Shown piece after piece: positions 24,952 through 56,525 of a DNA stretch of 64,000 nt. Location of the stretch: the NCBI RefSeq assembly GCF_022045235.1, contig NW_027266272.1:23312001-23376000 (forward strand). The letters run 5' to 3'. Each line of letters opens with the position of its first letter. The stretch's first letter is position 1. The notes beneath the pieces are model-generated. The model had not been told where the DNA came from. It searched no databases and saw nothing but the letters and a program-made list of their open reading frames with translations. This DNA is from Haliotis cracherodii. Lineage: Eukaryota. The position numbers and the translations under genes were made by a program.

Positions 24952-27895
24952 AAGGATGAGGAGGCGGAGGATGACGAGGAAATTAAAGGGGGAGAAGGAC
25001 AAGAAGGAGGAGATATTATGACAGGAAGGAGGAGAGGAAAGGGGAGGATAGGAAAGGATAAGGACAAGGAGGAGGCGAGGAAAGTGGGTGGACAAGGAGG
25101 AGAGGAAAGGAGATGGACAAGGAAGGTGCGAGGAAAGTGGGTGGACAAGGGGGGGACAGGAAATTGGGAGGACAAGAAGGAGAGGAAAGGACGAGGACAA
25201 GGAAGAGGCGAGGAAAGGAGAAGGACAAGGAAGAGGCGAGGAAAGTGGGTGGACAAGGAGGCGAGGAAAGGAGAAGGACAAGGAAGAGGCGAGGAAAGTG
25301 GGTGGACAAGGAGGCGAGGAAAGGAGGAGGACAAGGGGGGCAGGACAGGGGGGGGGGGGGCAAGGGGGGCAGGAAAGGGGGGGGGGCAAGGAAGAGGCGA
25401 GGTAAGGGGAGGAGAAGGAGGCGAGGAAAGGAGAAGGACAAGGGGATGAGGAAAGGAGAAGGACAAGGAGGAGGAGAGGAAAGGGGAGGACAAGGAGGCG
25501 AGGAAAGGGTGAGGACAAGGAGGAGGAGAGGAAATGGGAGGACAAGGGGGAGGAGAGGAAAGGGGGGACAAGGAGGCGAGGAAAGGATGAGGACAAGGAG
25601 GAGGAGGAGAGGAAAGGATAAGGACAAGGGAGAGGAGAGGAAAGGGGAGGACAAGGGGGAGAGGAAAGGAAGAGGACAAGGAGGAGGAGAGGAAATGGGA
25701 GGACAAGGGGGAGGAGAGGAAAATGGGGACAAGGGGAGAGGAAAGGATGAGGACAAGGAGGAGGAGGAGAGGAAAGGATAAGGACAAGGGAGAGGAGAGG
25801 AAAGGGGAGGACAAGGGGGAGAGGAAAGGATGAGGACAAGGAGGAGGAGAGGAAATGGGAGGACAAGGGGGAGGAGAGGAAAATGGGGACAAGGGGGAGA
25901 GGAAAGGATGAGGACAAGGAGGAGGAGAGGAAGGGGGAGGAGAGGAAAGGGGAGGACAAGGAGGCGAGGAAAGGATGAGGACAAGGAGGTGGAGAGGAAA
26001 GGGGAGGACAAGGGGGAGAGGAAAGGATGAGGACAAGGAGGAGGACAGGAAAGGAGAAGGACAAGAAGGTGAGGTGGAGAGGAAAGGAGAAGGACAAGAA
26101 GGTGAGGGGAGAAGAAAAGATGAGGACAAGGAGGAGGAGAGGAAAGGAGAAGGACAAGAAGGTGAGGTGGAGAGGAAAGGTGAGGACAAGGAGGCGAGGA
26201 AAGGATGAGGCCAAGAAGGTGAGGTGGAGAGGAAAGGATGAGGACAAGGAGGAGGAGAGGAAAGGAGAAGGACAAGAAGGTGAGGTGGAGAGGAAAGGAT
26301 GAGGCCAAGGAGGTGAGGTGGAGAGGAAAGGATGAGGACAAGGAGGAGGAGAGGAAAGGAGAAGGACAAGAAGGTGAGGTGGAGAGGAAAGGATGAGGAC
26401 AAGGAGGCGAGGAAAGGATGAGGCCAAGAAGGTGAGGTGGAGAGGAAAGGATGAGGACAAGGAGGAGGAGAGGAAAGGAGAAGGACAAGAAGGTGAGGTG
26501 GAGAGGAAAGGATGAGGACAAGGAGGAGGAGAGGAAAGGGGGGGGACAAGGAGGCGAGGAAAGGATGAGGACAAGGAGGAGGACAGGAAAGGAGAAGGAC
26601 AAGAAGGTGAGGTGGAGAGGAAAGGATGAGGACAAGAAGGTGAGGTGGAGAGGAAAGGATGAGGACAAAGAGGAGGAGAGGAAAGGGGGGGGACAAGGAG
26701 GCGAGGAAAGGATGAGGACAAGGAGGAGGACAGGAAAGGAGAAGGACAAGAAGGTGAGGTGGAGAGGAAAGGATGAGGACAAGGAGGAGGAGAGGAAAGG
26801 AGAAGGACAAGAAGGTGAGGTGGAGAGGAAAGGATGAGGACAAGGAGGAGGAGAGGGAAGGGGGGGGGGGGGACAATGAGGCCAGGAAAGGAGGAGGACA
26901 AGGAGGAGGAGAGGAAATGGGGGGACAAGGAGCAGGTGAAGCAAGGGCAGGAGAAGGAGTAGGACAAGAAGGGGGAGGATGGGAGGAGGAGAAGGACAAG
27001 GGGTGGCAGAAGGTGGGGAAGAAAAAGGAGTAAGGGGTGAGGAGGGGAGAAGGAGGAGTAGGACAAGGAGGAGAGGAAGGTGGAGGAGAAGGAAAAGAAG
27101 GAAGGGGAAGAAGGAGGACGAAAATGGGGGGGGGGGGGGTGAAGAATGGGAGGAGGTGGTAAATGAGAAGGACAAGGAGGAGCTAGTGGAGTAGAAGGAG
27201 ATGGTGTAAGAAAGGAGGTGAAAAGGAGGGAAGAGGTGTGAAGGAGAAGGAGGAGGTGGGGAGGAGAAGGTGGAGGAAGAGGATGTGGTTATCGTGGAGT
27301 AGAAGGAGATGTGTAGGAGAAGGAGGAGAAGAACAAGAGGCAGGAGGAGGAGGAGCATGAAAAGAAGGAGGAGGTGGGGGGAGACGAAGGAGATGTGGAG
27401 GAGAAGGTGGGGAGGAGCAGAGAAGGAGGAGGAAGAGAAGGTGGTTCTCGTGGAGTAGGAGGGGGAGATGGTGTAGGAGAAGGAGGGGGGAGAACAACAA
27501 GCAGGAGTAGGAGGAGCATGAAAAGAAGGAGGGGAAGAGGGGGCAAGAAGGGGGAGGAGGAGATAAGGACAAGAAGGGGGAGAAGGAGATAAGGACAAGA
27601 AGGGGGAGAAAGGGGAGGAGAATGACAAGAAGGAGGCTGAGGAGGAGTGGGGATGTGGTGGAGGAGGAGGGGGAGAAGAATAGTTCGCCAATGACACAGG
27701 AACTGACTACTTGGGTGGTGGGGGGGGGGGGGGGGGGGGGCGAGAGAAGGAGAAGTAGGAGAATAGTTCGCCAACAGCAGATGCATGGGACAGAAATTGA
27801 CTAAAAGGAGGAGGAGGTGGAGAAGGGGAATAAGGAGGAGAGGAGGAGAAGGAGGATGAAGAGAAAGGAGGGGAAAGGGGGGTGGGGGGAAGGAC
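24952..27895. repeat. Polypurine low-complexity tract (GGACAAGGAGGAGGAGAGGAAA-type units)
   Basis: About 2.9 kb almost entirely A/G on the plus strand. Confidence 0.96.
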
Positions 27896-45916: not shown

Positions 45917-46285
45917 ACCGCCTCCGTGGTCTAGTGGTAGGGCGTCCGCCTGGAGAGCGGAAGGCCCGGGGTTTGATCCCCGGCCGCGTCATACCAAAAG
46001 ACTTTAAAAGATGGTACTTGTTAATACCCTGTCTGGCGCTCGGCATTTAGGGGCTAAGACAAGGACTGGTTGGCTTGGAGTCAGTATACTGTGTCTTGGT
46101 GGGGTATTCATGTTAAACTGCGGCATGGAATCTCAGTGAACTAGCACTATAAATCGGCATCAGTCCGGACTAGTACAAGCAGCCACACACACGTGCATGC
46201 ACGTCGCTATATAAGTGCAATAATCTTGGACGCGACGTTCATCCCCACCTCACCTCACCTCACCTCACCTCACCTCACCTCACCT
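45917..46285 (+). mobile_element. V-domain-like SINE
   Basis: Family match, (cctca)n tail. Confidence 0.92.
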
Positions 46286-54183: not shown

Positions 54184-54511
54184 ATACCATCCTACCGGGT
54201 ACCCATTCACAACTGGGTGATAAGAGGCGTATTTCGAACAAAGTCACTTGCCTGTTGTTCTATATTATCCATGAATGCCTTCTTGGTGATGTGTGTCTTT
54301 GTATCATGTTGTATCTTTGTAAAAATCTATTAGCAAATGAATGGATTTGGATATCGAATCACATTAAGCGTACCATCTCTGAATTACTGTTTCAAGCAGT
54401 GTTCAACCCACCTCACTGATTATGTGAAGACCTTGTGAATTATTGAGAAAAAAGCTGTAAGGGACATGGACGTGAGCTCAGCTCAACTAATCCACAGTTC
54501 ATTTGAAACCC

Positions 54512-54780
54512 GACCCGTGAAGATCCAGGGTAGAATAGGCCTTCAGCTACCCATGCCTTTTGTAAAAGGCAACTATTCTTGTTGTAAAAGGCGACTAACG
54601 GGATCAAGTGGTCAGACTCACTGACTTGGTTGATGCATGTCATCGATCCTACATCACGAGGATCGATGCTCATGATATAAATCCCTGGATTGTCTTGTCC
54701 AAACTTGATTATTTACAGACCGCCGTCCTATAGCTGGAATATTGCTGAGTGCAGGTTAAACAACAAACCAACCAACCAAA
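54512..54780 (+). mobile_element. SINE family B, full length
   Basis: TSD tcatttgaaaccc. Confidence 0.92.
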
Positions 54781-56062
54781 TCATTTGAAACCCAACAAGG
54801 CAACTTGACATGTGCAACAAATACATGGTTTATTAACGTTTTATGAATGTTTTATGAAGGCAGTGTTGCAGGATCTGGAGATACTCACTTCATGCATAGT
54901 CATCGAAATTGTCAGATTAGAAATCAAAGTCCGTTGATATGACAGATGTGGTGATATGGAGCAATATGTACCCATCCTTTGTTACTGAAAGTCCGCGTTA
55001 GAATTTAAGGGTCCTGAGGTGACATTTGAACATGCGGGTCAATTTTCTTGACATCCATCATGTCTATTCTTTGCTTGGAACACAGCATGTCAGAGGACAC
55101 TCTCCTGGGTGATGTCTGTCCTTAGTTCAGAGAGCCAGCAAGCAAATGCTCTTGAAACGCTTCTGGTTTTTCTCAAAAACACAATCTTTTACTGCATGGA
55201 CTCAGCATTTTGGAATCATATGCATCAGTCAGTTGTCTTTCTGACCATAAATCTCTCATGATCCAAATATTGATGCTATGAAGTAAAATGCAAAATTCTG
55301 CTGAGCCATCAATCTTACTTAATCATGTTAATAGTTAGGGCAGGCATGGTATTTCAAACCCCTGGTAATTGAAACATTACTTGCTGCATCCAATGGCCGG
55401 TTGAATGATGTTCTATTGATAATTTAGCTTGGCATTGACAACAATGGCCGTTGAACTATCATGGCTGACTGACCACAAGATTATTGTTGGTTAAGAAGGG
55501 ACGAGGTTGTTGCAGTTATGGCATAATTAATTTAAGAAAATGATGGGAACATATGCACCATTATTATAACATTTGTTGTGTGTTTCTGTTGTGTATATCA
55601 CACTATTAAATTATCTGTATTATTTTGCAATATTCTGGAAAAAATGTAAGAATCCTTTTTAACTGATGCGGATTAACCATGTTAACCTTCATTCAAGAGC
55701 AATGCAATTAGAACCATTACATTATTGATGTCCTTAAAATAACTGCAATCTGTGCGAAACTGGCTGCACCAGTCTGTGCGAAAAACCAAGCTGTTGAACC
55801 AGCAAAATTTCTGCTGGTCCATTTACTTGTTTGACAGGTTTTTTTTCTCACAGTAATGAACACTGTTTTCAGACAGCTTAATTGAAGGTAGTCTGTTATA
55901 GTATTATTGGTATATGAAAAACCTTTGAATTTATTTGAGACTGAATACCATGGTGACTGACAGAGTTCCAGATTAATGCTTTCAGATGAATTCAGGGTTC
56001 ATGGACAGATGTAATCCAATCTGTCATTAGTCAAGTAAACTGTTTTATTTGCGTTAAGCAAG

Positions 56063-56275: not shown

Positions 56276-56335
56276 ATGCACTAAGCAAGTAATAGTCTAT
56301 GTATTAACATTCAGCTGCTACAGCTCGGTACCACT

Positions 56336-56525
56336 TTGAAGATCTGGGTTACAACTGGCCTTCAGCAAACCTTGCTTGTCATAAGAGGCAACTAACGGCA
56401 TCTGGTGGTCAGGCTCGTTGACTTGGTTGATGCATGTCATCGATCCCAACCTGACCTGATAATTTACAGATGGCTGTTATATGGTGGGAATATTGCTGAC
56501 TGCCGCATTAAACAACCAATAAAAA
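56336..56525 (+). mobile_element. SINE family B, internally deleted
   Basis: Family match. Confidence 0.78.

Follow-up and report, generated by a model that had tools for sequence, protein, structure and literature searches.

The head of a short box-free SINE is predicted with high confidence to fold as two tandem H-type pseudoknots joined to a near-invariant hairpin. The same RNA motif recurs in three settings: at the 5' terminus of the SINE, behind a ribozyme-like fold in the 5' region of LINEs, and at the start of the 3' untranslated region (UTR) of RNA viruses. One function must fit all three; we tentatively propose, as a reading that falls somewhat short of probable, that the head is a putative xrRNA-like roadblock to 5'-to-3' exoribonucleases and not a cutter. 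The analysis concerns a 64-kb stretch of the genome (hereafter, the window) that a first-pass annotation had examined from its letters, together with the rest of the same genome (the own genome), viral and prokaryote collections, and metagenomes.

The SINE is 230–270 nt long (227–250 nt ahead of its terminal repeats; 250 nt in the copy at 13733), with approximately 18 copies or fragments in the window and more than 2,600 first-look candidates across the 1.18-Gb own genome. The whole copy at 54512..54780 (+), a double-hairpin variant and probable LP-SINE, lies between a 13-nt 5' TSD (54499..54511, +) and its 3' counterpart (54781..54793, +), and its 3' tail with AAAC/AACC repeats (54730..54780, +) is of the I/Nimb-LINE type, as judged by the likeness of the tail to those of LINEs. 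As the first-pass annotation had reported, there are four whole heads in the window: a single-hairpin head at 9405..9479 (+; 41.4 bits with model R1), double-hairpin heads at 13637..13733 (−; 56.6 bits) and 18471..18565 (+; 53 bits), and that at 54512 (+). Three of the four copies are indeed bounded by TSDs, of 13 nt at 54512, 11 nt at 18471 (18459–18469 and 18737–18747), and 13 nt, two of them mismatched, at 13733; the only TSD candidate for the 9405 copy is a 7-nt match distant from the tail. The start sequence ascribed to all four is exact for the 54512 copy (GACCCGTGAAG), whereas the others read GACCCGCG, GGGCCCGTG, and GACATGTG. Older, diverged heads are found at 21296..21374 (+; 33.6 bits) and 56330..56404 (+; 32.3 bits).

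Several other features of the window can be noted in passing. A tandem array at 7878..8850 (−) is built of 42–52-nt units equivalent to the 5' half of the head and has a decayed SINE copy at its end; a second head-derived array, with a period of approximately 34 nt that includes the hairpin, lies elsewhere in the genome (G000:C23:27097894-27100529). Large minisatellite or low-complexity arrays occupy positions 1–2721 (34-nt period), 14360–15735, and 24952–27863. Open frames at 7009–7623 (−) and 9709–9870 contain, by eye, EF-hand-like calcium-binding motifs; they may be exons or derive from a retrocopied EF-hand gene. RNA sequencing runs labeled "pig gut" and "plant" contain the SINE (one 202-nt contig at depth 2.4; 311 contigs over the whole SINE); we do not take these as evidence of transfer to mammals.

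The element is most likely the published abalone LP-SINE, an assignment made from the description, the length, and a scallop head rather than from the letters of the published consensus (Hdi_LP/Hmi_LP). LP-SINEs have been described in Haliotis, Littorina, and oysters, with a LINE-derived head of approximately 70 nt that was proposed to be a promoter (Matetovici 2016, PMC4758252). According to the text of that paper available to us, the Haliotis consensus, Hdi_LP, is 255 bp, the head is common to Nimb-17_LMi, I-3_DR, and RTE-9_CPB and stands in place of the tRNA head in an oyster SINE, and Pr77 is given as an analogy. The reported presence of the LP head in turtle, zebrafish, and locust LINEs suggests that it is an old, mobile module. 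Our SINE likewise has a LINE-derived head of this size instead of a tRNA head (the module also being found in the 5' UTRs of LINEs L189 and L193), as well as TSDs that vary and tandem repeats at the 3' end. In supplementary fig. S2 of PMC4758252, the scallop region marked "Nimb-17 homology" has, by eye, the same AGAAT and 17-nt hairpin, and its S2 helix differs in sequence but is complementary. The portions of PMC4758252 available to us contain no RNA fold, covariation, viral copies, or tandem with an HDV-like fold, and the corresponding portions of Kojima 2018 (PMC5786205), PMC6765202, and PMC8256844 do not describe the motif; the supplement of Kojima 2018 gave no text match to the hairpin. 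Our literature searches for the motif letters, for follow-up work on LP-SINEs, and for xrRNAs in retroposons returned nothing, and we did not find the motif fold, the viral copies, or the HDV tandem described in the literature searched; an earlier account of the motif or of the LINE HDV-like fold may exist elsewhere. The first-pass description of the head as an uncharacterised structured RNA thus holds for the pseudoknotted domain at the 5' end of a box-free SINE, but the head itself, at the level of DNA, has probably already been published; what appears to be new is the predicted fold, the viral copies, and the tandem arrangement with the HDV-like fold.

The head spans approximately 75 nt, in the order S1a, 1 nt, S2a, S1b, a loop ending in AGAAUA, S2b, P3a, a loop that provides Pb a, P3b, UG, P4, CUAA, and Pb b, so that the P4 hairpin is placed inside the second pseudoknot. 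In the 54512 copy (all coordinates on the + strand), pseudoknot 1 opens with the S1 5' strand, CCCG, at 54514..54517, which is conserved with little variation, followed after a 1-nt loop by the 7-nt S2 5' strand at 54519..54525, for which 7/7 pairs change on both sides in an unfitted alignment. The S1 3' strand (54526..54529) is here mismatched at one position. The conserved AGAAT(A/T) at 54532..54537, whose columns are invariant, lies in loop 3 of pseudoknot 1, which tolerates long insertions upstream of that sequence; the S2 3' strand then follows at 54538..54544. The P3 hairpin (54545..54557) has 4 bp, of which 2/4 remain in this copy, and its loop is the Pb 5' strand of pseudoknot 2. Next come a first, decayed copy of the doubled P4 hairpin (54559..54575) and P4 itself (54581..54598), which has a 7-nt purine-rich loop, is followed by CTAA, and is near-invariant across elements and viruses. 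The Pb 3' strand (54598..54602) pairs with the P3 loop, with one A.C mismatch in the SINE. The 54512 copy as a whole is decayed, having mismatches in S1, S2, P3, and both hairpins and a fold z of −1.68. The doubling of the hairpin that the first-pass annotation saw in some copies is common, being present in 34/63 own-genome heads (selected for their likeness to two copies from the window). The motif is also found, with other S2 sequences, in older subfamilies of the own genome and in one further family (L324, L321, L339, L341). Separately, the 5'-truncated SINE copies at window positions 3385, 31038, 53961, 56273, 58804, and 60460 have starts within the P4 region or immediately ahead of it, a pattern that may reflect frequent drop-off of reverse transcriptase there.

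To assess the fold across elements, we hand-picked 20 head types, 6 of them viral and 14 non-viral, in which the 5' end is intact and loop 3 is short; AGAAT(A/T) also served as an anchor in this choice, and long-loop families and decayed singletons were excluded. Because several of the 14 non-viral heads are related and the choice was made by hand, the permutation counts that follow are not probabilities. In a sequence-only MAFFT alignment of the 20 types, S1, S2, P3, and P4 together pair in 86.6% of 357 cells, compared with 33–53% for slid controls; 11/18 pairs show double-sided changes, and 0/500 shuffles match the score. RNAalifold recovers S2, P3, and P4 unaided. S2, P3, and Pb each covary, with strand-swap permutations equaling the observed pairing in 0/20,000 cases, whereas the figure for S1 is 1373/20000 (519/20000 after the addition of five variants). 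P4 was fixed by the search pattern used to collect the motif; relaxed viral scans yielded no true motif with a different P4 stem, and its outer pair is U.U in 19/25, G.U in 3/25, and G-C in 3/25. In all, approximately 19 nt of the motif are near-invariant. CCAA and CCGA occur as variants of the CUAA strand, and a 24-nt duplication within pseudoknot 2 is common. The Rfam scan that the first-pass annotation had recommended gave no family that covers the motif, whether in the window or in SINE, LINE, or viral loci (E up to 10), and the motif is absent from Rfam 15.

Covariation, which the first-pass annotation had suggested checking, does exist, but for S2, P3, and Pb, which are partly other helices than those it proposed. 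Its GAAGATC/GGTCTTC helix and its GTCG..CGAC hairpin followed by TAA are present, and it missed the P3 hairpin. The compensatory changes that it pointed to do not hold up across the 63 own-genome heads: For CGAAGA/TCTTCG the two sides are uncoupled (T>C alone in 8, A>G alone in 3, both in 0, the filter for this set having left out the 9405 copy), and the TACCC case is a single change in 1/63 heads. Similarly, the proposed loop GGGTT has G at position 18 in 43/63 heads and T in 16/63, making GGGGT the commoner form, and AACCC is unchanged in response. When head types are compared, neither the closing helix nor the loop/AACCC pseudoknot exceeds chance (49.7% paired, with 286/500 shuffles equal; strand swaps 4498 and 18194 of 20000), and we reject both as conserved features. 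As the closing helix does form in single-sequence folds of the SINE, it may be a family-specific alternative in this element.

We next consider where copies of the SINE begin. A TSD of at least 8 nt delimits 25/63 full-length own-genome copies, which have AAAC/AACC tails. Consistent with the near-uniform start described for the window copies, the 5' ends are not heterogeneous: 16/25 TSD-delimited copies begin no more than 1 nt from the G two bases ahead of CCCG, and the remaining 9/25 start between 12 nt upstream and 1 nt downstream of the first C. Several SINE families that are unrelated to one another have the motif at their 5' terminus. Two other SINE families have 5' ends at or beside the C run in 6/7 TSDs; for a third, metagenome family TSDs were found in 2/14 copies tested, both 4–6 nt upstream, and for a fourth in 0/2. 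A search with A- and B-box patterns found no such pair at tRNA spacing in any head, in agreement with the first-pass annotation, whereas the tRNA-SINE at window position 45920 has both; the tRNA-like head with A/B boxes that marks tRNA-derived SINEs (SINE2) is accordingly lacking here. In one metagenome family, an ARAGORN search of 10 loci found no tRNA downstream of the motif. The box-bearing tRNA-derived SINE is present in the window at 45920-46265 (+), 11626-11982 (−), and 6260-6605 (−), and its head resembles the MESC-type head of supplementary fig. S1 in PMC4758252, as far as that source was available. Small-RNA runs gave few reads over the head, mostly antisense species of approximately 30 nt and hardly any sense reads. 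In one such run, 128 antisense reads of approximately 31 nt, nearly all with the same start, cover pseudoknot 1 of a LINE motif (L245:817-847); these are piRNA-like, and possibly copies of one molecule.

Box-free heads with a sharp start raise the question of whether the head acts mainly as an internal DNA promoter, as in the "LINE promoter" proposal of Matetovici 2016, with the RNA fold taking second place (compare the trypanosome Pr77). Such a role would suit the 5'-terminal position of the head, its substitution for tRNA heads in the oyster SINE (PMC4758252, in the text available), and the sharp start at a purine, which is G in 51/63 heads. It would explain neither the base-pair covariation nor the presence of the motif in RNA viruses that have no DNA stage; the viral copies described below cannot be accounted for by a DNA promoter. 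Moreover, LINEs of the own genome start 57 nt upstream of the motif. We therefore regard a promoter as a quite improbable main role, though it may be an added role of the head.

The LINE copies are informative on this point. Two APE-type LINEs in the prokaryote collection have the hairpin approximately 340–460 nt ahead of the ORF1 frame, L193 with the whole motif and L189 cut by the contig start. In the own genome, 18/20 loci found by ORF1 similarity contain the motif at 56–66 bits, in most LINE loci 380–550 nt ahead of ORF1, and ORF2 of these LINEs encodes the same domain set as I/Nimb elements, namely APE, RT, and RNase H. These I/Nimb-type LINEs begin 57 nt upstream of the motif, at G1 of an HDV-like fold whose last strand abuts S1. 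The canonical minimal HDV-like features are all recognizable: P1 pairs 7/7 from G1 with a closing G.U, P2 7/7, and P3 3/3, together with a pyrimidine-rich L3 (TCCTCGT), GG, and CTAA with C in J4/2. Against RF02682 the fold scores 27.5–29 bits, under the gathering score of 44. We thus consider the 5' fold of these LINEs to be HDV-like, a predicted candidate for self-cleaving RNA, and an unusually small one. Examination of distinct LINE insertion sites (best-scoring and hence young copies) places 43/43 starts in the HDV-like fold and 0/43 at the motif; genomic reads of a related organism show 38 loose ends at the HDV start (753–756) and none at the motif start among the matches listed. Likewise, no own-genome LINE starting at the motif was seen among 30 of 99 pattern matches. 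No HDV-like fold was found upstream of the 20 other head types (for L169 there are only 12 nt to examine).

With regard to this module, the 57-nt HDV-like fold at L245:754-810 and at 42 other insertion sites has almost no P4 and starts several I/Nimb-type LINE families. The ORF1 identity between these families falls to 42–47%, and yet their first approximately 200 nt are near-identical, a likeness that hints at a recent exchange of the 5' module among HDV-led LINE families. At L245:811, seven genomic reads comprise the HDV-like part followed by other sequence, and the module may therefore also exist without the motif. At the other end of the SINE, the tail (taken from copy L060) agrees at 30/32 nt with those of two LINEs, L261 and L266, among 12 extended loci. 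Because the tail repeat of these LINEs is ACTC, unlike the AAAC/AACC of the SINE, we reject them as its exact partner. Other SINE families (window 11127-11414, 12650-12820, and like copies) have the same I/Nimb-type tail, with ACTC repeats at the end.

These LINE starts bear directly on the 5'-processing ribozyme suggested by the first-pass annotation, that is, a new self-cleaving class cutting at the 5' edge of the head. The sharp 5' ends of the SINE would be expected of such a ribozyme, as would a compact double pseudoknot with many invariant nucleotides and a CUAA after the hairpin like that of the upstream HDV-like fold, and 5' ribozymes are used by many non-LTR elements (PMC6765202 and PMC5786205, in the text available). 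However, the 57 nt upstream of the motif are kept in 43/43 LINE insertions, which implies that there is no efficient cut there; a 5' cut would, by our reasoning, strip the 3' end from an RNA-virus genome, and the viral contigs read through the site. The 24-nt duplication is common inside pseudoknot 2, and the CUAA strand varies. Cleavage at the 5' edge would fit the SINE setting alone of the three. Given that a separate upstream HDV-like fold marks the LINE 5' end and that the viral 3' end would be lost, a ribozyme is improbable.

Nor does the motif match any of the ribozyme classes compared here. HDV-like ribozymes of R2, L1Tc/Pr77, and RTE are, like the motif, portable 5' LINE modules with a double pseudoknot and CUAA after a hairpin, but their helices are nested whereas those of the motif are in tandem. 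The first-pass statement that the fold is neither HDV-like nor hammerhead is borne out by this tandem helix order and by the lack of Rfam or descriptor support: Our own loose HDV-like descriptor occurs in 3/20 regions, at inconsistent strands and places, compared with 8/100 shuffles (one strand). For hammerhead, twister, pistol, hatchet, and twister-sister ribozymes, Rfam gave no match even at E up to 10 (the last two judged by Rfam only). Core patterns for the first three of these produced a single antisense hammerhead-core match in 20 regions, which we treat as background. The Pistol ribozyme opens, as the motif does, with a pseudoknot having an A-rich connecting strand. The later helix order differs, the motif has no cleavage-site junction, and neither Rfam nor the pattern search yields a match.

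The exact 17-nt hairpin pattern is found in 5 viral contigs, at least 120 metagenome loci, and 9 loci of the prokaryote collection; clustering was feasible for 131/136 loci and sorted them into four large families and many singletons. The 9 prokaryote matches comprise 5 chance-like ones (without the upstream motif, at most 21.4 bits) and 4 true motifs, in which animal-type LINE or SINE DNA within bacterial assemblies (L189, L193, L187, L190) is probably host contamination. Relaxed viral scans returned 36 rows with no new true motif, as judged by eye, and a further relaxed scan returned 21 rows, 14 of them new or unexamined before, including one true motif, L314. The motif is in sense in 7/7 RNA-virus-type contigs (L196, L197, L201, L199, L200, L202, L314), representing 6 distinct contigs, since L201 is 99.3% identical to L197. 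In these 6, the first motif copy lies 3–122 nt past the stop codon of the last long ORF; in the RNA-virus-type contigs, the distance between the end of a hairpin and the contig end is 14–119 nt. Pfam identifies a tombus-type RdRP_3 in L200, L202, and L314 and RdRP_4 in L199, and tetravirus-type, nodavirus-type, and S-domain capsids among the viral contigs; L196 has only a weak capsid match (E 0.005). Two contigs have tandem motif copies, L314 with two and L196 with a second that is cut by the contig end. In addition, L198, a 212-kb DNA-virus contig that encodes an NAD-dependent ligase, has one motif copy between genes.

Several observations bear on the origin of the viral copies. A model built from 12 non-viral heads only scores the viral loci at 42–68 bits, compared with at most 26 for chance pattern matches. 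The S2 of every viral copy is individually compensated, and the viral downstream sequence has no match in 281 non-viral loci; both facts disfavour chimeric assembly as their source, as do the two records L197 and L201, which are 99.3% identical across the junction. The viral copies also weigh on the possibility that the head is a binding site for the ORF1 or ORF2 protein of the element, serving packaging or 5' integration, and was taken up by viruses without that role. SINEs often carry 5' parts of LINEs (PMC5786205), and the head is common to I/Nimb and RTE elements (PMC4758252; both sources as available to us), as a putative protein-binding site might be. Against this, the viral copies keep the fold through compensatory changes of their own, so that selection in the virus is needed. 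It also has to be considered that the ORF1 and RT proteins of the I/Nimb and RTE clades are unrelated. Of all the functions weighed here, this is the one to which we give least credence.

The reading that we prefer, a putative block to exoribonucleases, would operate as follows. A read-through transcript of the SINE would be trimmed by Xrn1/Xrn2 back to the base of S1, leaving a stable RNA with a defined 5' end, for which neither a pol III promoter nor a ribozyme would be needed; the protein of an I/Nimb-type LINE would then reverse-transcribe the SINE RNA by way of the common 3' tail. In viruses, the same block would yield a short non-coding 3' RNA, and the module could have spread among LINE clades, SINEs, and viruses through template switching. 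The SINE and viral settings are thus accommodated, whereas in the LINE setting a block would be at least partly redundant.

The comparison with viral xrRNAs is instructive in both directions. Gezelle 2025 (PMC12397905, in the text available to us) describes plant xrRNAs as compact pseudoknots of the loop-to-3' type that are located in 3' UTRs, and reports that Xrn1 halts at the first helix base. The motif is likewise a compact pseudoknot of a viral 3' UTR in which a hairpin loop pairs with a downstream strand, and its 5' boundary, too, falls at the first helix base: SINE copies start 0–3 nt before S1, that is, at an xrRNA-type halt position. On the other hand, the scaffolds that define the xrRNA classes in the available text of PMC12397905 are lacking, as there is neither a three-way junction nor a P1/P2 stack with an L2B T-loop. 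The motif further differs from class 3, of plant viruses, and from classes 1 and 2, of flaviviruses, in having a second pseudoknot and an invariant hairpin downstream, in occurring in host retroposons, and in matching no Rfam family. Because ordinary frameshift H-type pseudoknots do not stall Xrn1 (Dilweg 2023, PMC10321173, in the text available), topology alone proves nothing. Several findings stand against a block: No trimmed LINE copies were seen, as 0/43 insertions start at the motif; S1 is little varied; Pb is weak in L197, L198, and L200; and P4, the most invariant part, lies at least 45 nt downstream of the expected nuclease stop and looks more like a binding site than part of a block. 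Known xrRNAs are, moreover, variable in sequence, which we also count against the block. That the motif represents a new structural class of putative xrRNA, one that defines retroposon 5' ends and has been traded among I/Nimb and RTE LINEs, SINEs, RNA viruses, and a DNA virus, is accordingly a possibility that we would put forward only with reserve.

The near-invariance of P4 is more readily understood if the hairpin is shown to a host translation factor or ribosome, as in a putative cap-substitute resembling a 3' CITE. Such an element would drive translation of uncapped LINE or viral RNA and would tether the SINE to ribosomes making LINE protein. It would fit both the LINE setting, where the motif stands directly behind the HDV-like fold, whose product would be uncapped, and before ORF1, and the viral setting, where three contigs have a tombus-type RdRP_3; tombusvirids use 3' CITEs (PMC6471432, in the text available). 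The approximately 19 near-invariant nucleotides suggest a conserved ligand, and the doubling of the hairpin in more than half of the heads (34/63) would suit a binding site. Conversely, the SINEs are non-coding and there is no Rfam match, and a cap-substitute alone leaves unexplained the sharp S1 ends of box-free SINEs, for which a promoter would be needed too. Known 3' CITEs are said to be specific to plant viruses (Gezelle 2025, PMC12397905, in the available text). In form, the motif shares with 3' CITEs such as the PTE (PMC6471432, as available) a structured, pseudoknotted character and a place in tombus-type viral 3' UTRs, but it is not T-shaped with a C-rich junction and a G-rich bulge as described there, is far more conserved in sequence, and is found at retroposon 5' ends. 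We judge a cap-substitute to be possible but unlikely. The likelihoods given here to the exoribonuclease block and to the four other functions are not mutually exclusive.

Taken together, the covarying helices and the copies in viruses suggest that the head acts as RNA. The finding bears on how box-free SINEs and LINEs obtain a precise 5' end, a question for which the LP head has been the proposed promoter since 2016. If the preferred reading is true, an xrRNA in host retroposons would constitute a third route to a defined 5' end, besides promoters and ribozymes. Whatever its function, the motif, absent from Rfam, ties the evolution of transposons to that of viruses.
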